Below are positions 7,998 through 64,000 of a stretch of DNA of 64,000 nt, in pieces (the first letter of the stretch is position 1; each line of letters starts with the position of its first letter). This DNA is from an uncultured virus (IMG/VR IMGVR_UViG_3300025150_000005) (lineage: Duplodnaviria; Heunggongvirae; Uroviricota; Caudoviricetes), in the IMG/VR virus record IMGVR_UViG_3300025150_000005, one strand, 5' to 3'. A program made the position numbers and the translations under genes. The notes under the pieces are model-generated. The model saw only the letters and a list, made by a program, of their open reading frames with translations, ran no database searches and was not told the origin of the DNA.

Positions 7998-8000
7998 CGA

Positions 8001-11686: not shown

Positions 11687-11707
11687 CGATCACCTCACGA
11701 AGACCAG

Positions 11708-46997: not shown

Positions 46998-47011
46998 TCG
47001 GAGCCTTGACT

Positions 47012-47887: not shown

Positions 47888-47912
47888 TCTACGTTTGTAG
47901 GTGGGCTATCGT
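47884..47912 (+). promoter_or_regulatory. sigma70-like promoter overlapping the CTACGTTTGTAG palindrome
   Basis: TTGATC-N17-TATCGT. Confidence 0.45.
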
Positions 47913-47957
47913 CTGGTGACCAGTAGGGTTCCAGGCGAGAGGCACCTTGACCGAACA

Positions 47958-48315: not shown

Positions 48316-48501
48316 ATGCGTGCGCCCCCAAGGCTACCGCGCTTTTTCCCACTAGAAGTTCAGTCGTTTGCGAGGCGGGGCCGCGTTGCGTGGTCCGGTC
48401 GTGCCTTTGTACCGCGTCAGCGTAGACGCGTTCGGGCTGAGGCTTGGGCGCGTGTACGGTCGCACGGTGCGACCACATACCCGAGTTGATAGGAGTTCAA
48501 G

Positions 48502-48840
48502 ATGACGCGCGTGGAACTGGTGGAGCTGGCCTAGGTGATCGTGTTCGGTTGGGCCCCTGGGGCGCAGCGGGTGACGGTACAGCCGCTGCGCATGGAGAGC
48601 CACCACAAGGAGCCGATGTTCTACATCACCCTCAGCGACGACGGGGTTGAGGTGTAGAGCGCGGTCGTCGCGCAGGGTGCATGGTGGGCCGCACTGCAGG
48701 AGGCGCTGGGTGCCGCGGAGCGCGGAGCAGACCGCGACGCGACGCAGGATCGTCTCGATGAGGCGCGCGTGGAGGAAGCGCGCGCTGCAGCGCTGCAGGC
48801 GGAGGCTCTGCTGGAGATGTACGAGGCCGACCGCACCTGA
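48502..48840 (+). pseudogene. reading frame interrupted by two in-frame TAG codons
   Basis: ATG 48502 (AGGAG SD), TAG 48532, in-frame ATG 48616 (AAGGAG SD), TAG 48655, TGA ending 48840. Confidence 0.45.
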
Positions 48841-48939
48841 CAGCGTACCTCACGAGCACAGAACCACCGAGCCCTCCGCGGGGTTCGGTGGTTCGATGGT
48901 CGTACGGTGCGACTACATCTGACAGAGGAGGCACAGCGG

Positions 48940-49491
48940 ATGAACCCGACTGTGATCAAGACGATCGTCGCCGCGCAACAGCGCGGCGAGATCGCGTGCG
49001 TCATGGACGCGCGCGGGGACTTCAACCTCGACCACGCCCGCACTGCTGGTGTCGACATGTCTCGGCTGCTCTTCAGCCGGCCCGACCACGTCGAGCAGGC
49101 AAACGAGATCATCACGTCGCTGGTTCGCAGCGGCGCGATCGACATTATCGTCACCGACGGTTTCATTGTCGAGGACGATGTGACGCGGCGCACGGCTGCG
49201 TGCAACGGCACGCGGCTCCTCGGCCTGCCGCTCACGCGGCCGACCTTCAACCTGTACTCCCAGGCGCCCGGTCGCAACGCGGCGCTGTACGTGCTGGCAA
49301 AGAACGCCAGTGCGCACAACTGTGTCGAGTGGATCACGGCGCACGCCCGGTACGGCGAGGGCCTGCGGCTCTTCCGTGCCTTCCAGTGGTCACCGTCCGG
49401 CGAGCGGTTCGTGTGCGCCTGGATCGTCGAGGGTGGCGCGGGTCGCGTGACGACGTGGCTCGACGTGAGCATCCCGCGGGAGTTCGCGTGA
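48940..49491 (+). CDS. RecA-fragment fusion protein
   Basis: AAQQRGEIACVMDA...ARTAGVDMSRLLFSRPDHVEQANEIITSLVRSGAIDIIVTD matches the RecA core between the Walker motifs; no P-loop. Confidence 0.75.
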   Translation: MNPTVIKTIVAAQQRGEIACVMDARGDFNLDHARTAGVDMSRLLFSRPDHVEQANEIITSLVRSGAIDIIVTDGFIVEDDVTRRTAACNGTRLLGLPLTRPTFNLYSQAPGRNAALYVLAKNASAHNCVEWITAHARYGEGLRLFRAFQWSPSGERFVCAWIVEGGAGRVTTWLDVSIPREFA

Positions 49492-49712
49492 TGGCCGCCA
49501 GCATTGCGGAGATCGTGGCCTATCGCAGCCCAGTCGAGCACTGGCACGTTGCCCTGCGCGACCACCAGGGCCGCGCAAGTGCCATTCCCGGCCGCTTCGA
49601 CTCGGCTGAGGGCGCCTTCGTGGCGCGTGCCGCGGCACAGCAGAACGCCAACGCGCTGGGCCTGAAGCGGGCCTACTGCGTGGTGTCCTGCACTGGCACC
49701 CACACCCTGTGA
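49491..49712 (+). CDS. hypothetical protein
   Basis: TGATG coupling; stop codon supplied by the repeat. Confidence 0.55.
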   Translation: MAASIAEIVAYRSPVEHWHVALRDHQGRASAIPGRFDSAEGAFVARAAAQQNANALGLKRAYCVVSCTGTHTL

Positions 49713-49790
49713 GCACAGCAGGGCCGACGCGCGGAGCGTCGGCCCTGCGATGGTCGCATGGTGCGATCCAATGAGAGACAGCGGAGGCAG

Positions 49791-50147
49791 ATGAGGATGG
49801 TCCAGTACACCACCCCAGCCGTGGCGCGCGCGATCCGCGCGTACTTCGCGCGATTCAATGGTGATCCGGTGCTCGTGAATGCGATGATCGACGCGGGCCC
49901 GAAGGAGGTCACCGCCGGTGGGACGCTCTTCTTCCCTCTGCCGCAGGCGCTTCGGCGCCCGTTCTCCGACGCCGATCCGGCGACGGGGCTGGGCCCGTGC
50001 GCGTGCCGCTACTGCTCGCCGGTGGCGCACGTGTCGCAGCCCAACGGATGCTGGGATACATGCGCAGCGTCGTCGGATGGCGAGTCCGTCTGGCAGCCCC
50101 ACCACCCGGCCTTGAACGGGGCTCTCCCGAAGCGAGCGAAGGACTGA
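49791..50147 (+). CDS. hypothetical Cys-containing protein
   Basis: GGAGG SD just after the repeat; CACRYC. Confidence 0.6.
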   Translation: MRMVQYTTPAVARAIRAYFARFNGDPVLVNAMIDAGPKEVTAGGTLFFPLPQALRRPFSDADPATGLGPCACRYCSPVAHVSQPNGCWDTCAASSDGESVWQPHHPALNGALPKRAKD

Positions 50148-50241
50148 TCCCTACCCTGTGAGCACAGCAGGGCCGACGCTCCGCGTGTCGGCCCTGCGAT
50201 GGTCGCATGGTGCGGCTGATGGCAGACACGACGGAGGAAGC

Positions 50242-50778
50242 ATGAACGCGGCGACGAAGCCGGAGAAGACGCCCCTGGACATCATCACGGACCGCATGTA
50301 CAGCCACGTGCACGTGGCGCCCGAGCGTTGGCACGGGCGCCTGCACTTCAACGAGTGGGGCGCCTCGCGCCTCGTGGCCACCTACGGGTGGATCGCGGGC
50401 GTCGCGACGACGAACCCCGACTTCGCGGAGCGCCTCGCGGATGACCTGTTCGCACGCCTGGACTTCCTGGCCAACTACGCTGGGACGTGTGAGCGGGACG
50501 GCGTGACGTTGCCGCGTTGCCGCGTCGTCCTGGGCGACGACGGCACCCTCGGCGGGTTCACGGTGGCGTGGCACCGTCTCGTGGCTCCCGAGGAGGCGGT
50601 TGAGACGCGCGCTGACCTGACCGTCGAGCGCTGCGTGCACGACGGCGGGCACACCCGACTCGTGCAGGGGAAGTACAGGTTCTCGGTGAACGGCGCGATG
50701 CTCTACCGCGGCCCCGGTGCGGGGGAGACGTTCAGCGTCTCGACCTCGCGGGATTGTCTCTGGGACATCAACTCCTGA
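50242..50778 (+). CDS. hypothetical phage-type protein
   Basis: GGAGG SD after the repeat; C-terminal NGAMLYRGP...TFSVS...W.INS. Confidence 0.65.
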   Translation: MNAATKPEKTPLDIITDRMYSHVHVAPERWHGRLHFNEWGASRLVATYGWIAGVATTNPDFAERLADDLFARLDFLANYAGTCERDGVTLPRCRVVLGDDGTLGGFTVAWHRLVAPEEAVETRADLTVERCVHDGGHTRLVQGKYRFSVNGAMLYRGPGAGETFSVSTSRDCLWDINS

Positions 50779-50785
50779 GAAGCTC

Positions 50786-50867
50786 GGGGGCGTCCGCGCA
50801 GCAGCGCGGGCGCCCCTCAAGCTCCCCGAGTCGTCTACTCGGGGTGCTTGAGGGGCGGTGGTCGCCC
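50786..50867 (+). promoter_or_regulatory. double overlapping-hairpin element (variant 1)
   Basis: 13-bp stem overlapping a 20-bp stem, followed by GGTGGTCGC. Confidence 0.7.
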
Positions 50868-50893
50868 TGACACTCAACGGACAGGAGACAAGC

Positions 50894-52291
50894 ATGGCAT
50901 TGGTCAAGTCCGCGGGTATCCGCGGCATCGACCCGGTGCCCGTCGAGGTCACCGCGACGCTCCGTAAGGGGCTGCCGCGGTTCGACATCGTCGGGCTTCG
51001 GGGGGATCGGGCGGTCAGCGAGACGCGCGTGCGCGTCAAGTCGGCCCTGGAGGCTGCGGGCTGGTGGCCCAATGGCAACCTGCAGGTGCAGGTCGAACCA
51101 CAGTGTGACCCCGACCCGGCCTTCGACCTGCCGATCGCGCTGGCGGTCGCGCAGGCCGCGGGCTTCCTGCCCGACGACGGCGGCTTCGCCTTCGGTGAGC
51201 TGGCCCTCGACGGGCGGGTGCGCGGCGCTCGGGGCGCTATCGTGCGCGCCCAGGGTGTCGAGCAGTTCGAGGTCGTGCCCGACGTGGGCTACGTCTCCCA
51301 GGACAACGCGTTCGAGGTCGCGCGTGTGCGTAGTGGCGTCACGCTGCTGGACCATCTCGCAGAGGCGGCGCCGGCTGAGGTGCGGTGGCGTACCGAGCAC
51401 GTCCACTCCCGTACCCCCGCACCCCAGCTCGACCTCGGGGAGTGCAACCTCCTGCCCGAAACGCTCCGCGCATTGGAGGTTGCCCTGACCCTCCAGCGTC
51501 CCTTCCTGCTCGTTGGGCCGCCCGGCGCGGGGAAGACGATGATCGCGCGCCGCATCCCGGGTGTGCTTTGCTCGCTGAGCGAGGCCGAGGGCCGCGAGGT
51601 GCTCGCCATCGCCAGCGTGGCTGGGCTCTTGCTCTTGCGGGATGATGCTCCGATGGTCGCGGCGCGGCCCTTCCGAGCGCCGCACCACAGCTGCTCCGAG
51701 GTCGCGCTCGTGGGCGGTGGGCCGATGCGCCGCCCCGGTGAGCTGTCGCTGGCGCACCGCGGCGTTCTGTTCCTTGATGAGCTGCCGGAGTTCCGGCGGC
51801 TGAGCACCCAGGCGGTCGGGTCCGTTCTGGATCAGGGGGCGGTCACGCTGGGCTTCGGCATCGGGGAGACGGCGACTCTTCCGGCGGCTCCGGCGTTCGT
51901 GGTCGCCAGTACGAACCCGTGCCCGTGCGGCTACTACGGGCACTTCGCGCAGTGCTGCAAGTGTCACCCCACGGCGGTTCAGGCGTACACCGATCGGCTG
52001 CGCTGGGCAGCACGTGCCATCCACGCACGGATGGCCGTCCCGACCCCGACCCTCCGGGGACCGGGGGTCAACGAACGGCGGGCGTCGGTGTCGATGTCGA
52101 GCGAGGAGATGCGCGGGCGGGTTGCCCGTGCGCAGAACCTCCTCGACGATGTCGACGACGTTCGCGCGCCGGGACGGAGCGAGCTGACGCGACAGGTCGC
52201 GCGGTGCTGTGCAGCTGTCGACGGATCGCGGGAGGTGCAGGCGGAGCACTGGCGCGAGGCCGAGGGCTACACGGCGCTCCTGGTGGGGTGA
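50894..52291 (+). CDS. ComM/YifB-family Mg-chelatase-like AAA+ ATPase
   Basis: N-terminal GLPRFDIVGL...ETRVRVKSAL; GPPGAGKTM, RPFRAPHH, GELSLAHRGVLFLDELPEF, NPCPCG. Confidence 0.9.
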   Translation: MALVKSAGIRGIDPVPVEVTATLRKGLPRFDIVGLRGDRAVSETRVRVKSALEAAGWWPNGNLQVQVEPQCDPDPAFDLPIALAVAQAAGFLPDDGGFAFGELALDGRVRGARGAIVRAQGVEQFEVVPDVGYVSQDNAFEVARVRSGVTLLDHLAEAAPAEVRWRTEHVHSRTPAPQLDLGECNLLPETLRALEVALTLQRPFLLVGPPGAGKTMIARRIPGVLCSLSEAEGREVLAIASVAGLLLLRDDAPMVAARPFRAPHHSCSEVALVGGGPMRRPGELSLAHRGVLFLDELPEFRRLSTQAVGSVLDQGAVTLGFGIGETATLPAAPAFVVASTNPCPCGYYGHFAQCCKCHPTAVQAYTDRLRWAARAIHARMAVPTPTLRGPGVNERRASVSMSSEEMRGRVARAQNLLDDVDDVRAPGRSELTRQVARCCAAVDGSREVQAEHWREAEGYTALLVG

Positions 52292-52299
52292 GGTGCTGA

Positions 52300-52372
52300 G
52301 GAGCGGGGCGCGCGGGCGCCCCGCTCCCTAGAGCCTCCGAGGTGGACTCGGGGGTTCCAGGGAGCGATGGAG
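52300..52372 (+). promoter_or_regulatory. double overlapping-hairpin element (variant 2)
   Basis: 12-bp stem overlapping a 19-bp stem, followed by GATGG. Confidence 0.7.
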
Positions 52373-52400
52373 CTTCAACAGATTAGGGGAAATACGGAAC

Positions 52401-52652
52401 GTGGAATGCCATCAGTGCGGTGCGTGCTGCACGCACATTTCGATCTCGTCGGCTCTCCCGGGGCTGCCCAATGGCAAGCCCGCGGGGGTGAGGTGCCCAC
52501 ACCTCGACGCGCGGAACCTCTGTGGGCTCTTCGGGAAGCCTGAGAGGCCACGCGTCTGCTCGTCGTTCCAGGCGGATCGTGAGATCTGCGGGACGAACGG
52601 GGCTGAGGCGGTCGAGCTGATTCAGTTGTGGGAGCGCTTGACGGCGCCCTGA
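52401..52652 (+). CDS. YkgJ-family CxxCxxCC cysteine-cluster protein
   Basis: CHQCGACC..ISISS..PG.P.GKPAGVRC..L....C.LFG.PERP.VC. Confidence 0.85.
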   Translation: MECHQCGACCTHISISSALPGLPNGKPAGVRCPHLDARNLCGLFGKPERPRVCSSFQADREICGTNGAEAVELIQLWERLTAP

Positions 52653-52742
52653 TCGCAACCGCCTGAGCACAGGCGCGCCGACCCCGGTCGGCGCGCTGAT
52701 GGTCGTGCGGTACGACCTGACAGACACAAAGGAAGAACGCCA

Positions 52743-53372
52743 ATGGGTAGCAGCCTCATCACGCAACAGGCCGGCGCGCCGGCCGACTGGCAGACGCACG
52801 ACTACGAGCCCGAGATCGACGCCCTCACCCTTGAGGAATTCCGAGAGGCCCTCGACTACGGGATTCTGAACGAGGAGGCCCTGCGCGGCGAGATCGCGGA
52901 CGACAAGGACATCAACGATGCTGGTGACGTCTCCGAGGACGATCTGCTGGTCGTGCTGAAGGAGAAGGTGCGGCAGGCGCTGGCCTTCGTGCGGGAGCGC
53001 GCCGGCGGGCGCAGCCTCAATCAGTGGGTGCTCGCGGACGGTGGGGCCGGGTTGGAGACCGGGGGCGAGTCCTGGGGCGACGACCCGACCGAGGAGTACG
53101 GGCCGCTTCGGCTGTGTGTGGAAGTCGGGATCTTCGATTCGCTGCGGGCGGCGCGCGTCGTCCGGTGCTCGAAGGTGGCCGACGCGCTGATCGCAGAGGT
53201 CGGCAACAAGGATGTTGGCTACCTGCTCGACGACCGCGTGCATGACGCCAAGGGGAGCGAAGCGGCGGACATCAACAACGGCGGCGTCGCCGCCCAGATC
53301 AGATACCTCATGGACGAGTGCGGGATGAAGCCCGCCGAGATCCGTGAGGCACTCGCCGCCGACGACGACTGA
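52743..53372 (+). CDS. acidic hypothetical protein
   Basis: Fills the cassette exactly; AAGGA SD. Confidence 0.65.
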   Translation: MGSSLITQQAGAPADWQTHDYEPEIDALTLEEFREALDYGILNEEALRGEIADDKDINDAGDVSEDDLLVVLKEKVRQALAFVRERAGGRSLNQWVLADGGAGLETGGESWGDDPTEEYGPLRLCVEVGIFDSLRAARVVRCSKVADALIAEVGNKDVGYLLDDRVHDAKGSEAADINNGGVAAQIRYLMDECGMKPAEIREALAADDD

Positions 53373-53465
53373 TCGCAACCGCCTGAGCACAGAGCCCACG
53401 ACCCGCGTAGCGCGGTCGTGGGCTCGATGGTCGTGCGGTACGACCCAGTGATGACAGGAGTGTTA

Positions 53466-54032
53466 ATGACACGCCAAGAAGTCCACGAAGCGTTGCAGCG
53501 GCTGATCGAAGCCGCCAACGCTGCCGACGGGCCGGGGAGTGATCTCCCGCCCGAGTGGGCCGGGCAGAACCACCTGTACGGGGACGTCCAGGCGGCCCTG
53601 GAGCGAATCGCGCCGGGGGCCTGCGACGTCTGGTCGCGGGATGGGGAGTGGCCGAAGTGGGGTGAGTTCGTCCCGCCCCTCCGGGTGGAGGAGCATCCGG
53701 CGCTGGACGAGATTCGCCATCGCGCACGGGGCAACGCGTTCATCCTCGCGTTCCGGCTGGCCGAGCGGGCGTGGCCGAGTGTCACACTCGCCCTGGGTGT
53801 GCGATTCGGGCGTGACGCGCCCATCGCCACCTTCCTCGGGCGGATGCTGGGCAAAGGGGTCGGCCCGTGGTGGGTCGTGAGCACGCGCCCTGGCGGCGTC
53901 CCCAGCGATGAGGAACGCAGCGCGGCCATCCGGCTGCTCGAAGCGTCGGCGCTCGTTGGCGCCGGCGTCGAGCGTGTCGTGATCATGGGAAATGGGGGCA
54001 ACTACACCATCCTCCCCAGCACTACCGCGTGA
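53466..54032 (+). CDS. protein with a degenerate RadC/JAB-like C-terminus
   Basis: PGGVPSDEE..A.RLLEA..LVG...VVIMG...Y follows RadC spacing but lacks the His/Asp metal ligands. Confidence 0.5.
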   Translation: MTRQEVHEALQRLIEAANAADGPGSDLPPEWAGQNHLYGDVQAALERIAPGACDVWSRDGEWPKWGEFVPPLRVEEHPALDEIRHRARGNAFILAFRLAERAWPSVTLALGVRFGRDAPIATFLGRMLGKGVGPWWVVSTRPGGVPSDEERSAAIRLLEASALVGAGVERVVIMGNGGNYTILPSTTA

Positions 54033-54109
54033 GCGCAGAACGGCCGACGCCTCGTCAGCGTCGGCCGTTCGACGGTCGCACGGTGCGGCTAACGACGGAC
54101 AACGGAGGA

Positions 54110-55234
54110 ATGATGCGAAGCGAGTTCAAGGCTCTCCAGCGCGAGCTGAAGATGCGTGTCCTCGGGCGCGAGGACGAAGTGGAGGGGTTGCTCGTCGCGG
54201 CCCTCGCGGGCCAGCACCTGCTGTTGTTGGGTCCGCCCGGCACCGGCAAGAGCATGCTGGCCAACCTGTTCGCGCAGGCGGCCAACACGAAGCACTTCGG
54301 CCTGTTGCTGACGCAGTTCACCACCCCCGAGGAGGTGTTCGGGCCGGTCAAGTTGTCGGCTCTGAAGCAGGACCGCTACGAGCGCGTCCTGGACAACCAT
54401 CTTGCGAACGCAGAGTCCGCGTTCCTCGATGAGTGTTACAAGGCCAACTCCGCGATTCTCAATGCACTTCTGACTATTCTCAACGAACGCATCTTCGACA
54501 ACGGCGGGACGCGCGTCAAGTGCCCGCTGAAGTTCGTCGTCGGCGCGTCGAACGAGCTGCCCGAAGACAAGTCGCTCGGCGCCCTCGACGATCGCTTCGC
54601 CGTCCGCATGTGGATCGAGCCGCTGCAGAGCGACGACGACCGCGCGTGTATCCTGGGCGGACAGCTCAACCACGACCCCATGCCGACGCTGACGAACGGT
54701 GCGCTCGACGCGGCGCGCGCCGAGGTCCAGCGGGTCGACATCGCGCCCATCCTCCCGGAGGCCCTGGCGCTCATCCGAGAGATTCAGACCGACCTCTCGG
54801 TCTACGTCTCCGACCGCAAGCTGGCCCTGCTCGGCAGGCTCCTCCAGGCGGCCGCGTGGCTCGACGGTCGCACGACGGTCGGCAAGCAGCACCTCGCCAT
54901 CTTCCGCCACGCGCTCTGGTCGCACCCGGACCAGCGGGCTGCGGTCGCGAACAAGGTGCTCGCGGTCGCTGACCCCGAAGCTGCGGAAGCGGAGAAGATG
55001 CTCCGCACCATCGTGGGCGCGGCTCAGGCCGCCGACGCGACGCTCGGTCGGGCCGGGGCCAACCCGGCGAGCGCGGTGAACGAGCTGGCGGGGCTCAACC
55101 GGCAGACCCAGGAGGAGCTGCGCAAGCTGCGGGACCTCGCGCAGCGGTCGCCCTCGGCGGCGCGGACGCTGACGCGTGCAGAGGACGCCGCCAAGCGGGT
55201 GCACGCGGCGATCTCCCGCGCGGCGGGGATCTGA
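54110..55234 (+). CDS. MoxR/RavA-like AAA+ ATPase
   Basis: GPPGTGKS, FTTPEEVFGP, FLDECYKANSAILNALL, GASNELP, DRF, SDRK. Confidence 0.9.
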   Translation: MMRSEFKALQRELKMRVLGREDEVEGLLVAALAGQHLLLLGPPGTGKSMLANLFAQAANTKHFGLLLTQFTTPEEVFGPVKLSALKQDRYERVLDNHLANAESAFLDECYKANSAILNALLTILNERIFDNGGTRVKCPLKFVVGASNELPEDKSLGALDDRFAVRMWIEPLQSDDDRACILGGQLNHDPMPTLTNGALDAARAEVQRVDIAPILPEALALIREIQTDLSVYVSDRKLALLGRLLQAAAWLDGRTTVGKQHLAIFRHALWSHPDQRAAVANKVLAVADPEAAEAEKMLRTIVGAAQAADATLGRAGANPASAVNELAGLNRQTQEELRKLRDLAQRSPSAARTLTRAEDAAKRVHAAISRAAGI

Positions 55235-55333
55235 GCGATACCCTGTGAGCACAGCAGGGCCGACGCTTCGCGCGTCGGCCCTGCGATGGTCGCATGGTGC
55301 GATCCACACGACGACAGACGGAGAACGACAGCG

Positions 55334-55735
55334 ATGGCACCCCCATTCTACCGCACCGAAGTGCGGGCAGCCCACGACGCGTTGATCGCACAGTGGCTTG
55401 CCCAACCCGGCAACGAAGACGCATTCCGACGGGCGCTCGACGGCGCCCAGGGTGAGCGGATCGGGCTCCTCAAGGAGCAGCACTGCGCGCACGTGTGGCG
55501 GGTCAACGACTTGGCCCACGACGTGCGGCTCGACCTTTCGGCGGACGACCCACGAGGGACCTTCGCACGGGTGTGGGTCACGAAGGGGTTCGAGCGCGTA
55601 CGGCTGACACGGGAGACGGCAGAATGGGTGCAGGCCCAGAACGACGGCGTGCTGTTCACCATCGCACGCGACGCGATGATCGCAGCGGCGAGCAAGCTCG
55701 GGCGAGCGCTTGATCGCAAGCTCACTGTCTACTGA
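55334..55735 (+). CDS. hypothetical protein
   Basis: Fills the cassette; GGAG SD. Confidence 0.6.
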   Translation: MAPPFYRTEVRAAHDALIAQWLAQPGNEDAFRRALDGAQGERIGLLKEQHCAHVWRVNDLAHDVRLDLSADDPRGTFARVWVTKGFERVRLTRETAEWVQAQNDGVLFTIARDAMIAAASKLGRALDRKLTVY

Positions 55736-55848
55736 TCACGTACCGCTAATCACGTACCACCCGAGCGCAGGGCACAGGGGCGCGCAGCGCGTCCCTGTGC
55801 CTGACGGTCGCATGGTGCGGCTAACACGGACCAGAGGAGCCCCCACAA

Positions 55849-56778: not shown

Positions 56779-56883
56779 TTTCTACCCTGTGAGCACAGCG
56801 GGGCCGACGTCGCGAAGCGCGAAGCGTCGGCCCCGCGATGGTCGCATGGTGCGATCCGATGGGTGTGGTGGAGGCAGCGAGAC

Positions 56884-57453
56884 ATGGAAGAAGGTAGCTG
56901 GACCCCGTGGGGTCGGGCAGACAGTGTGAGGACCCTCGCGGAGGGGGTGTGGGCGGTGGGGACCCCGGGACACGGAGGGGTCAAGCTGGATCGGCGCCGC
57001 AACGCCGAGATCCCTGCGCCCATGCGCCGCAAGGGGGGCTGGTACGAGGAGGACTGCGAGGCGCACATCGTCTTCGTGTTCCTGCCGGTGGCGCGGGATG
57101 AGAGCCAACGCGAGGAGGCCCGGCGGGGCTGTCGCAACTACTTCCCGGATGAGTGGATGGCTGCGACGGGTGAGGTGCTGACGCCGGACCAGTCTCACGT
57201 CTTGGAGGAGCGCGCATTTCGAGTGAAGCACGCGGAGGACTACGTTTCGGTCGCCGCAGTCGGAAGCTGGCACGCGGCGGTCCCGGAGGGGATGGTGGGG
57301 TGCACCGCGGTCCCGGGGAAGATGTCGCACCTGGGATACGCGCGTGAGCACGCGCGGTGCTTCCTCGTGCCTGCTGACGAGTACAGTGGGCGTGGGCTCA
57401 AGTTCGTGATCGATCTCCAGCGACACCAGGAAGTGCCCGCGCGCACCTTCTGA
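56884..57453 (+). CDS. DUF7007-like mobile-element protein
   Basis: TPWG, V.TPGHGG, WYEEDCE, RNYFPD motifs. Confidence 0.7.
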   Translation: MEEGSWTPWGRADSVRTLAEGVWAVGTPGHGGVKLDRRRNAEIPAPMRRKGGWYEEDCEAHIVFVFLPVARDESQREEARRGCRNYFPDEWMAATGEVLTPDQSHVLEERAFRVKHAEDYVSVAAVGSWHAAVPEGMVGCTAVPGKMSHLGYAREHARCFLVPADEYSGRGLKFVIDLQRHQEVPARTF

Positions 57454-57544
57454 TCACGTACCACCCGAGCGCAGAGGGGGTGAGCCGTAGGGCTCGCCCC
57501 CTCGACGGTCGCATGGTGCGATCCGACGGATAGGAGACAGGACA

Positions 57545-58195
57545 GTGTACAACGCAACTTTCGTCCGACTCAAGGACCGGCTGGGGTGGACTGGGGACGA
57601 CGCACCCCTCCAACTGGCACTGACGCATCGGTCGCGCAGCGTCGACGCCAACAACGAGCGCCTGGAATTTCTAGGCGACTCCGTGCTGGACCTCGTCATC
57701 GGTGGGGCGCTGCTGATGCGGCACCCCACCCGTGATGAGGGCTGGCTTTCGCAGCGCCGGGCGCAGATCGTCTGCACCCCGGCCCTCGCGCGCCTCGCGC
57801 GAGACTGGCAGCTCGGGCACCTGTTGGAGATCGACAGCGGTGCCGAGCGCGATGGCGCCCGCGACAACGACCGAATCCTGGCGTCCACCGTCGAGGCGGT
57901 GATTGGGGCGTTCTACCAGCGCTTCGGCTTTGCTGAGACGGTAGGCGCGCTGTGTCGCGTGTTCGGCACGAATCTGAATGACGGGGGGGACATCGTGGTG
58001 GAGGAGAACCCCAAGACGGTCCTCCAGAACAGGCTCGCGCGTGCTGGGAGGGCGCCGCGGTATGTCGTGGGCGTCATCGACGGCGAGACGGTCGCCTACG
58101 TGTATATACAGGAGGCGCTGATCGGGCGTGGCGTGGGCCCGAATAAAAAGGCCGCTGAGCGGGCGGCCGCGGAGCACGCGCTTCGTTCCCTGTGA
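57545..58195 (+). CDS. rnc: ribonuclease III
   Basis: ALTHRS, NERLEFLGDSVL signature, VEAVIGA and C-terminal dsRBD (NPKTVLQ...G.G.NKKAAE.AAA). One acidic site reads ASTVE instead of ADxxE. Confidence 0.9.
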   Translation: MYNATFVRLKDRLGWTGDDAPLQLALTHRSRSVDANNERLEFLGDSVLDLVIGGALLMRHPTRDEGWLSQRRAQIVCTPALARLARDWQLGHLLEIDSGAERDGARDNDRILASTVEAVIGAFYQRFGFAETVGALCRVFGTNLNDGGDIVVEENPKTVLQNRLARAGRAPRYVVGVIDGETVAYVYIQEALIGRGVGPNKKAAERAAAEHALRSL

Positions 58196-58267
58196 GCACA
58201 GCAGGGCCGACGCTCCGCGCGTCGACCCTGCGATGGTTGCATGGCGCGGCAGAGAGAGGGAGAGACG

Positions 58268-58864
58268 ATGGACCGAGAGACGTTCAACCACTTCGTAGCA
58301 ATCCTGACCTTCCTGGAAACGGCGGGGATCCCGCACGCGGTCGGTGGGGCGGTCGCCATGGCCGCCTACGGATACAACCGCGCCACGTCGGACATCGACA
58401 TCTTCATCGACCCGAACCAGCTGGATCCGGTGCTCGGTGCGATGCGTGCGCTCGGGTACAATGTGCGTCTGGTGTTCGATGAGACGCACTACGAGGTGTC
58501 CAGTCCAGAGCTGGACCGTCGCCGTGGGGACCGTGAGGCGCATGCAGATCTGCTGTTCGCATCAGCGGATCCGGACTGGTCGGCGTTGATGGCCCCGGAT
58601 CTGGCGCGAATCTACGACCGTGAGATCAGTGTGTTCCCCGCAGTGTTGCTCGCAGCGGCCAAGTTCTACGCCGGGCGGGTGAAGGATGAGCTGGATCTCG
58701 TGGAGATGCTGAGCCGTGGCATCTACAACCCCGTCGAGGTCCAGGCGATGCTTCGTGCGATGCAGGATGAGGAGGCAGCGCTCGCATTCGAGGCGATGGT
58801 GGCGCGGTGGCGTGCACCGCGGCCCCGCCGGAACCGCCCCCCCAAAGGCACCCTGAGGCGCTAG
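58268..58864 (+). CDS. nucleotidyltransferase-fold protein
   Basis: GGAVA...RATSDIDIF; K....R.KD..D. Confidence 0.8.
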   Translation: MDRETFNHFVAILTFLETAGIPHAVGGAVAMAAYGYNRATSDIDIFIDPNQLDPVLGAMRALGYNVRLVFDETHYEVSSPELDRRRGDREAHADLLFASADPDWSALMAPDLARIYDREISVFPAVLLAAAKFYAGRVKDELDLVEMLSRGIYNPVEVQAMLRAMQDEEAALAFEAMVARWRAPRPRRNRPPKGTLRR

Positions 58865-58981
58865 TAAACCGACCTACGTTTGTAGTAGCGTACCACCCGA
58901 GCGCAGGGCACAGGGGCGCGCAGCGCGTCCCTGTGTCTGACGGTCGCATGGTGTGGCTAACAGAGCGGAAACGAGGTGCCA

Positions 58982-60289
58982 ATGGCACGCGAAGCCCAGG
59001 CCCCCGGTGCCTTCGATCTCACCCCGATTCAGGGGTGGTTCGTCGACCGGGCCGAACAGAACACCCCCCTCCTCCGCGCGGCCCGCGAGGGTCCGTGGGG
59101 GGAAGATGACCCGAGCTGGCGACAGTTCGGCCGTGAGCTGGCCGCGCGGCTCTACACGCGCGACAAGCTCGCGCCCCTCGACAACCCTGACCCCCGCCTG
59201 GGCGCACTTCACGCCCAGCTTTCCGAGCTGAGTGAGTGGCAGGCGCTGCAAGGTGCCCTGCAGCAGCGCGATGACCCGACCGAGGTCGGGAACGCAGCGG
59301 CGGACCTGCTGAAGGGCATCACTGCCCTGGCCGAGCAGGACAACCTGCGCCGCGTCAACCTCAGTGGATTCGAGGGCGAGCGCATCGGTGCCGCGATGGT
59401 CGATGCGTGCCGGAATGCTGCGCAGCGCTCCCTCGACGAAGGCGAGCGCATGGCGGGGATGGGCTGGGGCAACGACGCCACGCAGCCGGGCCGCAACGCG
59501 GACCAGCGCCGCGCGCTGCTCAAGCGCATGGACCGGAGCCCGCGACTGAAGGCGATCCTCGCCCTGGCGGGGCGCATGCGCTTCGCGGCCCGCGCTGCGG
59601 CGTCCAGGCGCGTCCAGTCGGGCGTCGGGATGACCTTTGGCATTGAGCAGGGGGCCGACGTCTCGCGGCTCCTGCCCATCGAACAGGGCTACCTGACGTC
59701 GGACGATCCCGACCTGGAGATCCTGGGCCTTGCGCATCTCGCGCAGCGCCAAGCGCTCCAGTATCGCATGGTGGTGCGGCCCCCGGTGCAGGGCGGGCCG
59801 ATCGTCGTGCTGCTCGACGTCTCGGGTTCGATGCAGGGCGAGTCAGAGGTTTGGGCGAAGGCGGTCTTCATCGGACTGTTGGAGCTGGCGCAGGAGAAGA
59901 AGCGCCCCGTGCACCTCGTCGCGTTCAACGGCGGCGTCGTAGGCCAGTGGCGCTTCGCACCCGGGGAGCGTGACTTCGACAAGCTCATCGACACGATGGG
60001 CGTGGCCTGCAAGGGCGGTACGAACTTCCACGAGCCGATGGCGCGCGGGATCAAGTGCATCGAAGGCGAGCAGACGATGCGTGACGCGGACGTGGTGATG
60101 ATCACGGACGGGGCCGCAGATGTCAATGGCATCGTCGAGATGCTCGACGGGTGCTCGGTTGGGGTGCGGTGCTTCGGCATCGTGATCGGCGCGAGCACGG
60201 AACGGCTCGACGTCTTCTGCTCGAAGACGTGGGGCCTGGAGGATCTGACGGTGGAGGCGGCGAGCAGGTTGTTCGACGCGGTCGTGTAG
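58982..60289 (+). CDS. VWA-domain protein (ViaA/CoxE-like partner of the MoxR ATPase)
   Basis: MIDAS DVSGSM, GGTNF, ITDG; RLLP.E. Confidence 0.9.
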   Translation: MAREAQAPGAFDLTPIQGWFVDRAEQNTPLLRAAREGPWGEDDPSWRQFGRELAARLYTRDKLAPLDNPDPRLGALHAQLSELSEWQALQGALQQRDDPTEVGNAAADLLKGITALAEQDNLRRVNLSGFEGERIGAAMVDACRNAAQRSLDEGERMAGMGWGNDATQPGRNADQRRALLKRMDRSPRLKAILALAGRMRFAARAAASRRVQSGVGMTFGIEQGADVSRLLPIEQGYLTSDDPDLEILGLAHLAQRQALQYRMVVRPPVQGGPIVVLLDVSGSMQGESEVWAKAVFIGLLELAQEKKRPVHLVAFNGGVVGQWRFAPGERDFDKLIDTMGVACKGGTNFHEPMARGIKCIEGEQTMRDADVVMITDGAADVNGIVEMLDGCSVGVRCFGIVIGASTERLDVFCSKTWGLEDLTVEAASRLFDAVV

Positions 60290-60367
60290 CCACAGGGGAG
60301 GGGGGCGCCTACGGCGGCCCCCTCCCTGATGGCTGCATGGTGCGGCCTACCAGCACGGAGATTTGAG

Positions 60368-60787
60368 ATGGAACACGGTTTCAAGAAGGCCCTGCGGGAC
60401 GCGTTGGGGGCGCAGCGGCTCGTAGAGGCTCATGATGCTCTTCTGAGCCACATCGACTCTTTCGAGCCTGTCTGTCCGGCCCTCCCCTACCTCTACGTGG
60501 CGATCGCGCGGGGCACCATCATCGATCTGGACGTGACGGGCGTGGACAGCGACGAGGCCCAGCTCGTGGCGCTGCTGCGGAGCTGCTATCCAGACGCCGA
60601 CCACTGGATCTGGGAGCACGTCCGCGTGGAAGCGGGTGTGGAGGGGTGCGTGGCGACTGCACCCGATGTCTGCATCGAGTGCGGGCGTGCGGACCTGACG
60701 GTGATGTGTGTCTCCGTAGACGGGGACGATGGCCGCCGTGCGTGGGTGTGCGACGACTGTGGCCACGCGCACCTGATCAACGACTGA
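60368..60787 (+). CDS. hypothetical Zn-ribbon protein
   Basis: CIEC...CDDC; GGAG SD. Confidence 0.6.
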   Translation: MEHGFKKALRDALGAQRLVEAHDALLSHIDSFEPVCPALPYLYVAIARGTIIDLDVTGVDSDEAQLVALLRSCYPDADHWIWEHVRVEAGVEGCVATAPDVCIECGRADLTVMCVSVDGDDGRRAWVCDDCGHAHLIND

Positions 60788-60879
60788 TCACGTACCACCC
60801 GAGCGCAGGACACAGGGGCGCGCAGCGCGTCCCTGTGTCTGACGGTCGGGTGGTGCAGCTGACGACGGAGGAGTTGAGG

Positions 60880-61335
60880 ATGGCATCGCCCAAGGAGTTT
60901 GCCGCGACGTTGCGCGTCGTGCGCGAGATCACAGACATGGAGCGGCGCGACGACACGGGGTCTGGGGTGTACACCCAGCTCCTTCAGCAGCTGCGCGGGG
61001 ACCTGCTCGTCCACGGTGCAGGGTACAAGCTCCCCCGTGGCGGACACGCGTCGACCTTTGGAGACGCGCTCGTGGCGTGGCAGGCGGAGGCCCGCAAGAT
61101 CGATGTGGACGACCCCGACGTCTGGTGGCGTCGAGTCCACAAGGCGCAGGCCCTCGACGAGCGCATCGCGCGGGGTGACGCTGCGACCCCGGACTTCGAC
61201 GCCGCCGTCGAGTCGCTCGCCAGTGACATTCGGACCGAGACGGGGCTCTACGCGCTGCCCGACGAGAACCTCACCGCGGACCGCGAACGCGCTCTGCAGC
61301 AGTGGCGGTACTACTCGCGCACGCCTCGCGACTGA
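60880..61335 (+). CDS. hypothetical protein
   Basis: GGAGG SD; fills the cassette. Confidence 0.6.
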   Translation: MASPKEFAATLRVVREITDMERRDDTGSGVYTQLLQQLRGDLLVHGAGYKLPRGGHASTFGDALVAWQAEARKIDVDDPDVWWRRVHKAQALDERIARGDAATPDFDAAVESLASDIRTETGLYALPDENLTADRERALQQWRYYSRTPRD

Positions 61336-61424
61336 GCAGCCACAGGGGGTGGGGACGCGTGCGGCGCGCGCCCCCACCCCTGATGGTCGCACGGTGCGGC
61401 TGGAACGGATCAAGGAGGCGACGC

Positions 61425-61796
61425 ATGAATGCGTGCAAGGTGCAGTGGATCGGGGTGGACGGCAGCCCCTGTGAGGCGTGGGTGGCCAAGCCCCGCAGTG
61501 AGGCCGGCTTCGTGTTGCCCATGATGGGCGCCTACCCGACCTACAAGGCCGCGATGCACGCGGCGTGGCAGGTCGAGGAGGGACACACTCCCGAGATCAA
61601 GGTGTTCGATCAGGACACCATCTTCGAGTGGGAGGGCACCTTCATGGAGTTCGCGCTCGCCAACGCGAGCACGCCTGACGTCGTCGAGCGGGTGCGTCGC
61701 GCCCAGCTGGGGTCGGTCGAGGTGTTCGGGGGCGGTGGAGCGAGCGTCTGCAAGGTGCTCAAGCTCGGTGGTCCCGTGCCGGGCGGTGCATCGTGA
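61425..61796 (+). CDS. hypothetical protein
   Basis: AAGGAGG SD. Confidence 0.6.
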   Translation: MNACKVQWIGVDGSPCEAWVAKPRSEAGFVLPMMGAYPTYKAAMHAAWQVEEGHTPEIKVFDQDTIFEWEGTFMEFALANASTPDVVERVRRAQLGSVEVFGGGGASVCKVLKLGGPVPGGAS

Positions 61797-62077
61797 GTGA
61801 CAAGGCGCTCTTCCCGCTGGGCCAGACCGTGATGACGGCTGGCTTCGAGGATCTGTTCGGTGAGTATGCACGAGAGGTCGCGACGATCGCGCTGACACGG
61901 CACGTCCACGGTGATTGGGGCGACCTCGACAACCACGACCGCGCGGTCAACGCACGGGCGCTCCGGGATGGCGGACGCCTGATGAGCGTCTACAAGTTCG
62001 ACGACGGCCTCACGCACTGGGTGATCACGGAGGCGGATCGATCCGTGACGACGGTGCTGCTACCGCATGACTACTGA
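61793..62077 (+). CDS. conserved plasmid/phage small protein
   Basis: F.LG..V.T.G...RH..GDWGDL...D...N..AL..G.RL.S.Y...WVITEADRSVTTVLLP.DY, a pattern I recognise from mobile elements. Confidence 0.8.
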   Translation: MSDKALFPLGQTVMTAGFEDLFGEYAREVATIALTRHVHGDWGDLDNHDRAVNARALRDGGRLMSVYKFDDGLTHWVITEADRSVTTVLLPHDY

Positions 62078-62174
62078 ACCCCGTGAGCACAAGGGAGGGG
62101 TGCGCCCTGCGCGCACCCCTCCCTGATGGTCACGTGGTGTGACCGATCGACCTTCACAGAAGGAAGGCTTCACG

Positions 62175-62552
62175 ATGATGCAGATGAATCGAATCGAGCG
62201 GGCCGTGCGAGAGCACGTCCAGGGGGGCTGGGACGATCGGGCGAAAGCCCTGATTCGTCGGGCAACTCACGACCTCTACGCCGGGCCATCGGTCTTGGGC
62301 TCCGAGGGCGGGGAGGGGATCGAGTGGCCTGGCTTCGCCGAGGCCATGGTCGAGCTTGGCGCCCTTGACCTTCCGGGGACGCTCTGGTGGGACACCACCG
62401 CAGAGATGCTCCTGGAGTGTGGGCCTCAGGGCTACACCGACGAGGATACGGGCGAGTACGTGGAGCCGTTCTACGAGGATTACGTGGAGCTGGATCTCCG
62501 CGAGATCCGTCGCATGGTCTTCGGGCGCGAACTCGCGCCCTACGTGCGCTGA
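62175..62552 (+). CDS. hypothetical protein
   Basis: AAGGA SD after the repeat. Confidence 0.6.
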   Translation: MMQMNRIERAVREHVQGGWDDRAKALIRRATHDLYAGPSVLGSEGGEGIEWPGFAEAMVELGALDLPGTLWWDTTAEMLLECGPQGYTDEDTGEYVEPFYEDYVELDLREIRRMVFGRELAPYVR

Positions 62553-62977
62553 TGGACACGCAGACGGACACCCCGCGCGAGGTCCCGAGCTACCCCGGCC
62601 TCCCCGTCGTCAAGGCCCTGGTGAAGAAGATGGGGCGGCTCCGATTGCGCGACGCTGTCGCCCGTGTCTGCGTGTCGGACTTCGGGATCGTGCGCTGTGA
62701 CAACAAGCCGCAACTGACCCTGAGCTTCGTCAACTCGCGCGGTAAGCGTGTGGACTGGTCCGTGAGCCTGGACCGGACGCCTGCGACGGAGGTCTACGAC
62801 CAGCTGCGTCAACTGGAGGGTCAGCTGATCTTCCTGCTCGCGAGTGGGCGGCTGTACACCGTGCTGACCTACAGCGCGATGAACCGCGGTGAGTCCGTGC
62901 GGCGTCGTGTCACGGGGACATCGCGGACGCGGTTCCGGGGGCAGTTCGTGATCGACGTCGAAGCCTTCCCCGAGTAG
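62552..62977 (+). CDS. hypothetical protein
   Basis: TGATG coupling; stop codon supplied by the repeat. Confidence 0.55.
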   Translation: MDTQTDTPREVPSYPGLPVVKALVKKMGRLRLRDAVARVCVSDFGIVRCDNKPQLTLSFVNSRGKRVDWSVSLDRTPATEVYDQLRQLEGQLIFLLASGRLYTVLTYSAMNRGESVRRRVTGTSRTRFRGQFVIDVEAFPE

Positions 62978-63056
62978 CCACAGGGGAGGGGGTCGCCTTC
63001 GGCGACCCCCTCCCTGATGGTCACGCGGTGTGATCAACAGGGACCTGGAGGAAGCG

Positions 63057-63257
63057 ATGTCCGAACGGACGCATACGTGCGTGGACGGCAAGCAGTCTGT
63101 CGCCCCGACCTACTGGCTCTACGACGGGCGAGGCATCCCGCCCTGTCGGGCGTGCCCGCAGTGTGAGGCCGAGAAGTACGGGCGCTATCGCCCCGACATT
63201 GTCGAGCGGGCCTACAGCGCGGCGGATGTCGACGAACCGATCGAGGAGGACGAGTGA
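63057..63257 (+). CDS. small hypothetical protein
   Basis: GGAGG SD; YDGRGIP.C..C..C...YRPD. Confidence 0.6.
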   Translation: MSERTHTCVDGKQSVAPTYWLYDGRGIPPCRACPQCEAEKYGRYRPDIVERAYSAADVDEPIEEDE

Positions 63258-63641
63258 TGGCGATCAAGCGTGGGTTACGGCCCCCGGCCATGTACGCCGT
63301 CGTCGCGACAACACTGCGGGGAGTCAGGGCAGCTGATCCCGAGACTGCTGAAGACGAGGCTGTGCGGTATCACGTCAAGCCGGGCGCATCACGTCAAGCC
63401 GGGCGCGCGTGCCATCATCGCGAAGTGTGTCGACCGCGCCGAGGCTGATCGGTGGCTCGCCGAGTTCAAGGCGGAGATTGAGGCCGACATCGCTGACGCT
63501 GAAGTTGATATGGCCAGCAAGGGTGCCCGGTTCGACTGGGACCGGGGCGGGATCGACATGGGCGATGGCGTTTTCATCCCGACGCTCCGCGTGGCGATCG
63601 TGCCCATCACGGATCTCGAAGACGACGCTGATCCCGAGTAG
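63257..63641 (+). pseudogene. gene frameshifted by a 19-bp tandem duplication
   Basis: ATCACGTCAAGCCGGGCGC x2 at 63369-63406; removing one copy joins ORF 63254.. to ORF ..63641. Confidence 0.75.
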
Positions 63642-63726
63642 CCACAGCGACAGGGGTGCGCATCGCGCCCCTGTCGTGATGGTCACGCGGTGTGACCGGA
63701 TCGACAACCCCGGACGGGAGAACGCA

Positions 63727-64000
63727 ATGAATCCTCGACAGAGTGTGCACGAAGACATGCGGCGGGATGCGGAGGAGGCATACCGCGATCACCAGATCGC
63801 GGGGGCCGGTGACCAGCACTGGTTCATCCGACGCACCCGAGACAGCGCCTACTGGGGGGAGATCGCGGTCCTGCGCGGGGCCCACATCGTGATCGTGGGT
63901 GACGGTCCGAAACTGATCGTGCGTGGCGGCGAGGACTTCGCGCATGACCCGATGGCGCACCTCCAGTGGTTCGCCGAGGGCGGTGCAGAGTACATCGCGG
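63727..64000 (+). CDS. hypothetical protein, truncated by the window edge
   Basis: GGGAG SD after the repeat; frame is open to the end. Confidence 0.6.
   Translation, partial: MNPRQSVHEDMRRDAEEAYRDHQIAGAGDQHWFIRRTRDSAYWGEIAVLRGAHIVIVGDGPKLIVRGGEDFAHDPMAHLQWFAEGGAEYIA

Follow-up and report, generated by a model that had tools for sequence, protein, structure and literature searches.

In the early region of phage T7, the RNase III of the host cuts at five intercistronic sites, and hairpins at the 5' terminus of an RNA stabilise it against decay that depends on the 5' end. Other hairpins and imperfect palindromes mark further modular arrangements of genes. The attC sites of integrons carry the core motifs R'' (RYYYAAC) and R' (GTTRRRY) and are served by a nearby IntI tyrosine recombinase with attI and Pc. 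Repetitive extragenic palindromic (REP) sequences are associated with a RAYT (Y1 HUH transposase), a 5' GTAG tetranucleotide and an occurrence in both orientations (BIME), and N4-type promoters combine a stem of 5-7 bp and a 3-nt loop on the template strand with a gene for a virion RNA polymerase. Here we analyse a 64,000-nt stretch of DNA (the window) from the uncultured virus IMGVR_UViG_3300025150_000005 (IMG/VR; Caudoviricetes), in which an element of ~70 nt is repeated between the co-oriented genes of an array that also encodes an RNase III. With moderate confidence we read this element as an intercistronic processing and stability site of the RNase III type, built like the sites in the T7 early region.

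According to the Nicholson review (PMC3867540), the idealised substrate of RNase III is a helix of 22 bp, or two helical turns, and where loops or mismatches lead to the cutting of one strand, the 3' hairpins left behind stabilise the RNA. Repeated elements ahead of phage genes have been described as PeSLs (promoter-early stem-loops) in T4-type phages (Arbiol et al. 2010, PMC2839356), and as start-associated sequences (SAS) and extended SAS (ESAS) in Cluster K mycobacteriophages (Pope et al. 2011, PMC3203893). In the latter report, ESAS appear as imperfect inverted repeats with a variable spacer and a function given as unknown. In the literature that we searched on phage RNase III, start-associated sequences, intercistronic hairpins and intergenic repeats of actinobacteriophages, neither the present element nor a similar one is described.

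Results and Discussion

Copies and anatomy of the element

The window contains 18 matches to a degenerate core pattern, GAYGGYYRNNYGGYRYR, always on the + strand and between positions 48895 and 63694. Dinucleotide shuffles of the sequence contain 0.20 matches on average, and none of 100 shuffles reaches 18. An alignment of these 18 copies with MAFFT has 79 columns, 11 of them invariant, and the covariance model built from it finds all 18 again at 52.9-79.1 bits and adds a divergent nineteenth copy, which lies first in the array and scores 33 bits (Table 1). All 19 are located on the + strand within 48.4-63.7 kb. Other matches of the model in the window are one at 8061-8135 (E = 0.2) and weaker echoes of the same sites on the reverse strand, where the score does not exceed 37 bits. 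These results bear out the initial annotation, which had counted 19 copies, all in one orientation and none in the first 48 kb. It had also seen the array run off the window, and this probably holds as well: one sample has a contig of 24,795 bases with its start at 60819, and joined to the end of the window is a stretch of 61 letters that matches 60286-60346 and points to a further copy outside. The array thus very likely continues past the end of the window.

A canonical copy extends from the end of one open reading frame (ORF) to the ribosome-binding site of the next. In six copies the upstream stop codon lies within the leader, as the TGA or TAG of GTGAGCRCAG or GTAGCCACAG, and in the remaining canonical copies it is found up to ~30 nt 5' of the leader. 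The leader is followed by an upper stem of 13 bp with free sequence, an apex of 3-11 nt and the core GAYGGTCGCAYGGTGCGR, and the start codon of the next gene comes 18-32 nt past this 18-nt core. Within the final 20 nt before the start codon, all 18 canonical copies have a Shine-Dalgarno (SD)-like GGAG, GAGG or AGGA, so that the SD sequence and start codon reported behind the element are present throughout. Only the cistron that follows the divergent first copy is uncertain, as the SD sequence and ATG found there open a frame of merely 10 codons. The small hairpin, of 7 bp and with a YGG loop, precedes the start codons by a fairly constant 16-30 nt.

Table 1. Copies of the element and other features of the array region (positions in the window; scores are those of the covariance model).
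Feature	Position	Strand	Score (bits)	Characteristics
Non-coding region	47888..48407	+		520 nt ahead of the array; two families of GGATCC-centred direct repeats
Copy 1	48408..48475	+	33	TAC replaces GAY, upper part atypical; small hairpin perfect (-9.9 kcal/mol); ahead of first small ORFs
Gene array	48486..64000	+		~26 co-oriented ORFs; G+C at third codon positions (GC3) 0.78-0.92; no paralogues among them
Copy 2	48844..48915	+	74.3	
Copy 3	49701..49769	+	79.1	Leader contains stop codon of 73-aa ORF 49491-49712
Copy 4	50150..50218	+	78.7	
Intergenic gap	50779..50893	+		Ahead of ComM-like gene; other GC-rich hairpins, no model match; 3' end vaguely like a decayed small-hairpin region
Intergenic gap	52292..52400	+		Behind ComM-like gene; other GC-rich hairpins, no model match
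Copy 5	52655..52718	+	64.4	Small-hairpin variant with compensatory changes
Copy 6	53375..53446	+	67.1	Leader and small hairpin as in copy 5, upper stem different
Copy 7	54021..54091	+	78.2	Upstream stop codon within leader
Copy 8	55237..55305	+	79.1	
Copy 9	55753..55823	+	76.8	
Copy 10	56781..56857	+	74.0	Apex extended
Copy 11	57457..57524	+	72.0	Immediately precedes RNase III gene
RNase III gene	57545..58195	+		Class 1, 216 aa; catalytic domain and dsRNA-binding domain; NERLEFLGD present; between copies 11 and 12
Copy 12	58184..58252	+	70.0	Leader contains RNase III stop codon; small hairpin weakened
Copy 13	58889..58959	+	72.6	
Copy 14	60280..60348	+	64.1	GTAGCCACAG-type leader with stop codon within
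Copy 15	60791..60861	+	75.1	Small hairpin destroyed, long hairpin perfect (-58.1 kcal/mol)
Copy 16	61329..61402	+	52.9	
Copy 17	62075..62145	+	77.9	Small-hairpin variant, A-U for G-C
Copy 18	62966..63036	+	67.7	
Copy 19	63630..63698	+	58.7	Last one in the window

Two mutually exclusive folds on the sense strand

The minimum-energy folds take the form of one long two-storey hairpin, in which an invariant CA/GA internal loop separates the 13-bp upper stem from a lower stem formed by the conserved leader and the GAYGGTCGCAYGGTG segment. The element had been described as two successive hairpins. The small hairpin of that description is indeed conserved, but the two structures are not independent, because the leader pairs with GAY and with the 5' arm of the small hairpin to yield the single long one. 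On the sense strand these folds comprise 21-30 pairs and reach -38 to -58 kcal/mol. The 2x2 loop between the upper and lower stems (alignment columns C18 A19 / G59 A60) is identical in 18/18 copies, and the other invariant columns are C16-G62, G63, G70 G71 and the pair G28-C50. The last is the ninth pair from the base of the upper stem (for example, positions 55264 and 55278) and is kept in all 18 copies of a stem whose sequence is otherwise free; an enzyme that binds dsRNA and measures along it would be expected to impose a contact of this kind, at a fixed spacing from the loop.

Pairing was counted on the structure-blind MAFFT alignment for both readings of the anatomy. In the upper stem (13 pairs) 97.9% of the cells are paired, and 12 of the 13 pairs change on both sides. 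The lower stem (11 pairs) has 88.5% paired cells as compared to 24-53% with slid partners, and five of its pairs change on both sides. Here, the R of GAGCRCAG tracks the Y of GAY (R17-Y61), with 13 A-U and five G-C combinations. For the small hairpin (7 pairs) the values are 96.8% versus 26-54% with slid partners, with changes on both sides in three pairs; each of the five pairs that lie outside the long hairpin is unpaired in at most one of the 18 copies. The covariance model as a whole contains 24 conserved pairs with 93.7% of the cells paired.

The long hairpin outscores the two-hairpin state in 18/18 copies, by 2.5-28.8 kcal/mol (mean 8.9), which means that formation of the small hairpin depends on loss or masking of the leader. 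By these predicted energies the element is bistable, with the long two-storey hairpin as the default and the conserved small hairpin as a second, mutually exclusive fold. Wobble pairs tell the strands apart: G.U occupies 29 of 126 cells in the small hairpin and 17 of 234 in the upper stem, and such pairs would be C.A mismatches on the other strand. Consistently, the predicted fold of the sense RNA is more stable than that of the antisense RNA in 17 of the 18 copies, with one tie (mean difference 6.1 kcal/mol, Wilcoxon p = 0.0003). Both observations assign the fold to the sense strand. Together with the tie to stop and start codons, this suggests an RNA structure in the mRNA as the natural reading of the element, and a fold of the + strand as single-stranded DNA is a formally possible alternative.

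The array and its RNase III gene

The RNase III encoded within the array (Table 1) matches the Pfam families PF14622 (3.6e-28), PF00636 (4.3e-20) and PF00035 (6.4e-8), and its NERLEFLGD stretch, the signature of the RNase III family, is intact. It shares ~41% identity with the cellular rnc products of four genomes, actinobacterial and Pseudomonas alike, and this identity was uninformative as a guide to the host lineage. In the phage collection searched, 13 of 50,697 records contain a match to the enzyme.

The other array products with a name are a RecA fragment, a ComM/Mg-chelatase-like ATPase, a CxxCxxCC protein, a bpMoxR ATPase, a DUF6744-like protein, a DUF7007 protein, a nucleotidyltransferase and a VWA/CoxE-like protein, and 17 of the 26 ORFs have no family assignment. 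The initial cargo list, which had named the RecA fragment, the ComM/Mg-chelatase-like, MoxR and VWA proteins, RNase III and the nucleotidyltransferase, was confirmed in these entries; its RadC-like entry has no Pfam match even at E <= 0.5. Among the 25 junctions between the 26 ORFs, 18 contain the element, five are overlaps or a 12-nt gap, and two have other GC-rich hairpins. The latter two surround the ComM/Mg-chelatase-like gene, the only array gene with non-family GC-rich hairpins on both sides, as if it were a later or foreign insertion.

The non-coding region ahead of the array has, within 47990-48235, a 16-nt repeat at 48000, 48037 and 48089 and a 22-nt repeat at 48132, 48155 and 48210, and six of the 23 GGGATCC sites of the window fall within 48083-48223. 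Judged by its position and repeats, the region is a candidate control or promoter region of the operon, and the repeats are candidate operator, promoter or origin repeats. In 47000-64000 no sigma-70-like promoter was detected on the + strand, and none of the elements has a T-tract terminator, as would fit transcription that reads through the entire array.

Comparison with known systems

The five early intergenic gaps of T7 chosen for comparison are presumably the RNase III sites R0.3, R0.5, R1, R1.1 and R1.3. They were folded from NC_001604, in which RNase III sites are not annotated. In their folds the upper stem measures 9-13 bp and an internal loop or bulge is present; in the two gaps checked the upstream stop codon lies in the lower stem (0.4/0.5 gap) or directly 5' of it (0.7/1 gap). 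As in the present array, the T7 sites are located between the cistrons of a co-oriented, early-type operon behind a non-coding control region. Both kinds form a two-storey hairpin in which an internal loop or bulge separates a lower stem from an upper stem of 9-13 bp (T7) or 13 bp (array). The stop codon is found at the lower stem (for T7, in the two gaps checked) and the next SD sequence 10-30 nt past the hairpin, and the sites of one genome make up a family of related sequence. With regard to the last point, the upper stems in four of the five T7 gaps (400-535, 1025-1106, 5450-5599 and 5986-6085) have a common AAGG...CCUU frame, and three of them read AAGGUC...GGCCUU. Because of this shared frame the T7 sites can be regarded as a repeat family themselves and as a precedent for the array.

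T7 relies on the host enzyme, whereas the array encodes its own RNase III; the T7 early region has 5 sites, as opposed to at least 19 copies here, which are GC-rich and far more stable. A conserved, mutually exclusive small hairpin that could cap the downstream RNA is a further difference. To our knowledge, nothing like such a capping hairpin is known for T7. No sequence similarity between the T7 sites and the element is detectable by the model or by BLAST. By analogy, the element appears to belong with the intercistronic hairpins of the RNase III type, among which the size of the array, the phage-borne RNase III and the conserved refolding hairpin would be distinctive.

Similarity to other systems is more partial. 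The PeSLs of T4-type phages, as described by Arbiol et al. (2010; PMC2839356), resemble the element in having a stem-loop with G-T pairs that lies between the upstream stop codon and the downstream SD sequence and start codon, in flanking small accessory or orphan genes of a plastic region, and in their proposed role as homology patches for modular shuffling. According to the same description, however, PeSLs have a strong sigma-70-like promoter with an AT-rich upstream region, in contrast to the lack of promoter-like + strand sites in the array; their stem-loops are short, and mini-circles have been demonstrated for them (PMC2839356). The SAS and ESAS of Cluster K mycobacteriophages are likewise motifs that recur in a single orientation, in front of many genes in a GC-rich phage (Pope et al. 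2011, PMC3203893). For ESAS that report notes non-compensatory departures from the consensus and little support for mRNA hairpins, whereas all helices of the present element covary, and SAS are spread over the genome in its maps, unlike the copies in one array found here; there is no sequence likeness. Like the Frpo and ssi sequences of plasmid leading regions (Samuel et al. 2024, PMC11541004), the element is folded and stands ahead of co-oriented genes of accessory or anti-defence type in what is likely the first-expressed part of the genome, but the -35, -10 and UP elements that this source places in the Frpo stem are missing from both arms.

A resemblance to attC and REP sequences exists insofar as the element is an imperfect palindrome, conserved in its outer part and free in its inner one, that follows co-oriented cassette ORFs, the ends of which may enter the site. 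It differs from them by its single orientation, the G.U pairs on the sense strand and the additional covarying hairpin downstream. An R'' or R' motif occurs in none of the 18 elements, each searched with 25-nt flanks. A Pfam scan of 80 ORFs of the window (25 + 45 + 10) revealed no integrase, and thus no IntI tyrosine recombinase, no transposase including those of the Y1 type, no RNA polymerase and no sigma factor. GTAG is present near the 5' end in four of the 18 elements, and all 19 copies share one orientation, which does not fit a REP/RAYT system. The small hairpin has the stem and loop size of an N4-type promoter, but the sense-strand fold and the lack of an RNA polymerase family in the window do not fit.

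Rfam 15 gave no match at gathering scores across the whole window. At E <= 1 the element was unmatched within 47800-64000, where the search returned only two weak matches, both in the non-family gap at 50783-50896 (symR, 32 bits, and Mu-gpT-DE, 23 bits; both are below the threshold and look like chance). Together with the missing R boxes and + strand sigma-70-like promoters, this upholds the earlier statement that the element matches no known consensus.

Proposed processing by RNase III and alternative explanations

What was computed (the copies, their sense-strand fold, the covariation of the helices, the exclusivity of the two folds, the anchoring to stop codons and SD sequences, the RNase III gene and the likeness to T7) suggests a model in which the elements are RNA signals, probably within one long polycistronic transcript of early or accessory genes. 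Transcription as a single message, the cleavage, its position and its stabilising effect are the parts of the model that we infer. In the intact transcript every element would be folded as the long two-storey hairpin, with the upstream stop codon in or just 5' of its base. The RNase III of the operon and/or the host enzyme would bind this helix of ~25-30 bp and cut at or near the CA/GA internal loop, as at the T7 early-region sites. The upper hairpin would then stay on the 3' end of the upstream cistron as a barrier to exonucleases, and the 3' segment, with the leader cut away, could refold into the conserved 7-bp hairpin with its YGG loop. Placed at the extreme 5' end of the downstream cistron and ahead of the ribosome-binding site, the small hairpin may serve as a uniform protective cap. 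Every gene, of whatever origin, would thereby receive the same mRNA ends and be insulated from its neighbours. Since a cut at the CA/GA loop would free the 3' segment, this model would also give the conserved yet disfavoured second fold a reason to exist.

An RNase III site should offer about two helical turns (at least about 20 bp), an internal loop between the upper and lower stems, and an enzyme that is available in the infected cell. The elements provide 21-30 pairs and have the loop in 18/18 copies, and the enzyme is encoded by the phage gene at 57545-58195. A modular expression system, as the initial annotation had put forward, is therefore the best-supported reading, given the covarying RNA structure on the sense strand, the anchoring to stop codons and SD sequences, the RNase III gene in the array and the T7-like architecture, even though its function is deduced rather than observed. 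More tentatively, and with considerable doubt on our part, the virus might carry a self-contained kit for operon punctuation, which would combine its own RNase III with a bistable intercistronic module that is cut at the invariant loop and then refolds. As the module spans the distance from the stop codon to the ribosome-binding site, it could double as a portable junction through which accessory genes are recombined in and out without a dedicated recombinase.

Several points weigh against processing by RNase III. The enzyme has little sequence specificity, and the substrate-like appearance of the element is thus weak evidence. With -38 to -58 kcal/mol the hairpins are considerably more stable than the three short T7 gaps folded (-22 to -26 kcal/mol). 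The RNase III gene may be mere accessory cargo with another target, such as host rRNA, dsRNA or a function in anti-defence. Moreover, all copies are paralogues from one genome, and the covariation counts are inflated and non-independent because of this shared descent and, possibly, gene conversion. The strong sequence conservation of the small hairpin and the leader would suit a sequence-specific binding protein as well or better. Finally, the listed runs that contain the sequence include no RNA run that could attest the single transcript or its cleavage.

One could also imagine that the hairpins punctuate the transcript without any cleavage, as barriers to 3' exonucleases, as partial attenuators that grade expression, or as insulators of the ribosome-binding sites, the RNase III being unrelated cargo. 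Their high stability directly after stop codons would suit such roles, as would the predicted accessibility of the SD sequences, which is equal in all states and thus befits an insulator. A precedent exists in the PeSL stem-loops of T4-type phages, which are described as terminating or attenuating transcription between small genes (PMC2839356). This explanation, which we regard as unlikely, leaves the conserved and covarying leader, internal loop and small hairpin unaccounted for, however. In addition, the hairpins have no T tract, and a series of nineteen efficient terminators that is uninterrupted by promoters would shut off the distal genes.

The pattern of conservation may hint at a protein that reads the sequence of the element. 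In this case the small hairpin, or the module of leader and internal loop, would serve an RNA-binding protein with sequence specificity as its operator, or a dedicated hairpin-specific endoribonuclease of the phage or host as its target (with Cas6/Csy4-like logic or translational control of the RegA kind), and all array cistrons would be co-regulated. It is true that conservation extends to the sequence in the small hairpin and the leader but is confined to structure in the upper stem, that the small hairpin keeps a fairly constant distance to the start codons, and that a protein of this kind could hide among the family-less array ORFs. On the intact RNA, however, the small hairpin is disfavoured in all 18 copies; it has been lost in copy 15 and weakened in copy 12, and besides RNase III no RNA-binding family was detected in the window. 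We consider this role improbable.

Still less probable, in our view, is a switch that is coupled to the termination of translation. A ribosome at the embedded stop codon would open the lower stem and allow the small hairpin to form, and in this way upstream translation would be reported downstream. In 18/18 copies the stop codon does lie within the 5' arm of the lower stem or immediately 5' of it, and the two mutually exclusive folds are both conserved. Yet the predicted accessibility of the SD sequence and start codon is the same in the intact, leader-masked and cleaved states (means 0.54, 0.56 and 0.56), with no consistent direction over the 18 copies, every cistron has its own SD sequence, and the folded T7 sites carry stop codons likewise, although no such switch is known for them. 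A switch that acts by masking the SD sequence was ruled out on the basis of this unchanged accessibility.

Recombination between cassettes as the main role of the elements, either as folded single-strand sites of the attC or REP kind with a recombinase encoded outside the window or as PeSL-like homology patches, is about as improbable as the termination switch, although the array does have a cassette-like appearance. Unrelated accessory genes follow each other, one or two to an element, upstream ORFs extend into the element and end at a stop codon that it supplies, as insertion at this place would produce, and the conserved mismatches of the imperfect palindromes are reminiscent of attC. Copies of 80 nt that are 91-93% identical occupy non-adjacent junctions between unrelated genes, and the types of leader, upper stem and tail cluster incongruently, as if elements recombined or were copied. 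Copies 5 and 6, for example, have the leader and small hairpin in common and not the upper stem, and copies 14 and 18 share the upper stem and neither leader nor tail. This mosaic make-up hints at recombination among elements, although transitions that preserve wobble pairing can account for some of the variation in the tail. Against a main role in recombination stand the lack of R boxes, the rarity of GTAG, and the lack of a tyrosine recombinase, RAYT or other recombinase among the scanned ORFs, save for the RecA fragment and a ParB-like protein. The single orientation is tied to transcription, and RNA is indicated both by the G.U pairs and by the second, covarying hairpin. Furthermore, the only real locus among 22 from a metagenome scan (L069) is the same virus, 99.8% identical and collinear. 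Contigs of four runs end at the repeats, and no alternative junctions between elements were found in them; this lack is weak evidence because contigs drop rare variants. Junctions inside the ComM-like gene do occur in contigs, but their sides are short (19-26 letters) and they were taken to stem from other organisms. With regard to the gene shuffling initially envisaged, a PeSL-like role as a by-product is possible, and an integron-like dedicated system is not supported.

That the 3' part of the element is a promoter (an N4-type hairpin, an Frpo-like single-strand promoter or the promoter of a phage RNA polymerase), with each cassette as its own unit and the big hairpin as its terminator, is highly improbable: the 7-bp stem and 3-nt loop agree with the N4 virion-polymerase promoter, and the place ahead of each gene and the strict orientation would fit, but neither arm has sigma-70-like -35 and -10 boxes on the + strand, which in the folded stem define Frpo according to its description (PMC11541004), the G.U pairs set the fold on the sense and not the template strand, compensatory changes are unexpected in a duplex promoter, and the scanned ORFs contain no RNA polymerase or sigma factor, even if the genome exceeds the window.

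Relatives and genome context

The element has no close counterpart in the collections searched. A blastn search of one element against phages yielded only chance-level matches (E >= 1), and tblastn of the RNase III, DUF7007, MoxR and ParB-like proteins against phages found distant matches (<60% identity) in unrelated phages. In one of these, Bradyrhizobium phage BDU-MI-1, the surroundings of the DUF7007 homologue are, by the annotation table, tightly packed small genes without such gaps. Scans of IMG/VR with sequence patterns returned 31 single matches, which were taken for chance, none, and 8 single matches, the best of which scored 21.7 bits by the model. IMG/VR protein scans with MoxR, an 889-aa protein and a two-sequence alignment found none, and a scan of one genome per species gave 17 single matches, all with at most 23.7 bits. 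Megablast of 48000-64000 against phages and plasmids resulted in zero matches. A protein of 310 aa on a contig of 4,621 bases (P0003) is 70% identical to the product of 55849-56778, and a related virus thus exists.

The runs that contain the sequence are DNA metagenomes from groundwater or aquifers. A protein of the virus itself is on record within a contig of 130,784 bases, and its identity as a large uncultured virus is plausible. The G+C content of the window ranges from 60 to 72%. Neither a capsid nor a terminase gene was recognised in the window, and its Pfam scan detected no conjugation genes. Genes with a recognised family encode a D12 methyltransferase, a DnaQ-like exonuclease, a transglutaminase-like protein and the ParB-like protein, and an amidase with a peptidoglycan-binding domain is also encoded. 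Most of the large proteins have no match at all, and a PDB sequence search with three of them was empty, too.

On the minus strand, 7365-14414 constitutes a block of glycan- and sugar-modifying genes with a lower G+C content (60-62%). It codes for an FGE-sulfatase-like protein, glycosyltransferases, a polysaccharide pyruvyl transferase, an FkbM methyltransferase and a GDP-mannose 4,6-dehydratase; a sulfotransferase-like match in this block is weak (E 7.5e-4) and below the Pfam cut-off. The sole tRNA of the window, called by ARAGORN at 44169-44265, is a tRNA-Thr(CGU) of 97 nt with the anticodon reported at position 37. This exceeds the standard size of a tRNA, and the gene may carry an insert or be miscalled. 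The stretches 46187-46322 and 47441-47576, exactly 1254 bp apart, are 80-87% identical, and the ORFs 46016-46630 and 46883-47887 therefore share a paralogous segment. Inside the latter ORF, 47693-47794 consists of an 18-bp unit in five to six tandem copies (84-100% identical), so that the product, a protein of no assigned family encoded immediately before the candidate control region of the array, contains a repeated hexapeptide.

Significance

If elements and enzyme work together as proposed, the phage would provide not only a processing enzyme but also at least 19 cognate sites of stereotyped design. The conserved refolding from a long hairpin to a hairpin that caps the 5' end would be new for intercistronic processing sites. 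Phage-encoded RNase III is rare in the phage collection searched, and the proposed function would give such a gene a testable job; as the element and the enzyme are small, they are amenable to a direct test in vitro. Synthetic biology builds equivalent operon punctuation with ribozymes or Csy4 sites. The array would be a natural design that equalises the expression of unrelated genes in one operon, and, should the more tentative idea of a complete punctuation kit be correct, it would represent a natural standard expression cassette that stands functionally between the RNase III sites of T7 and an integron.

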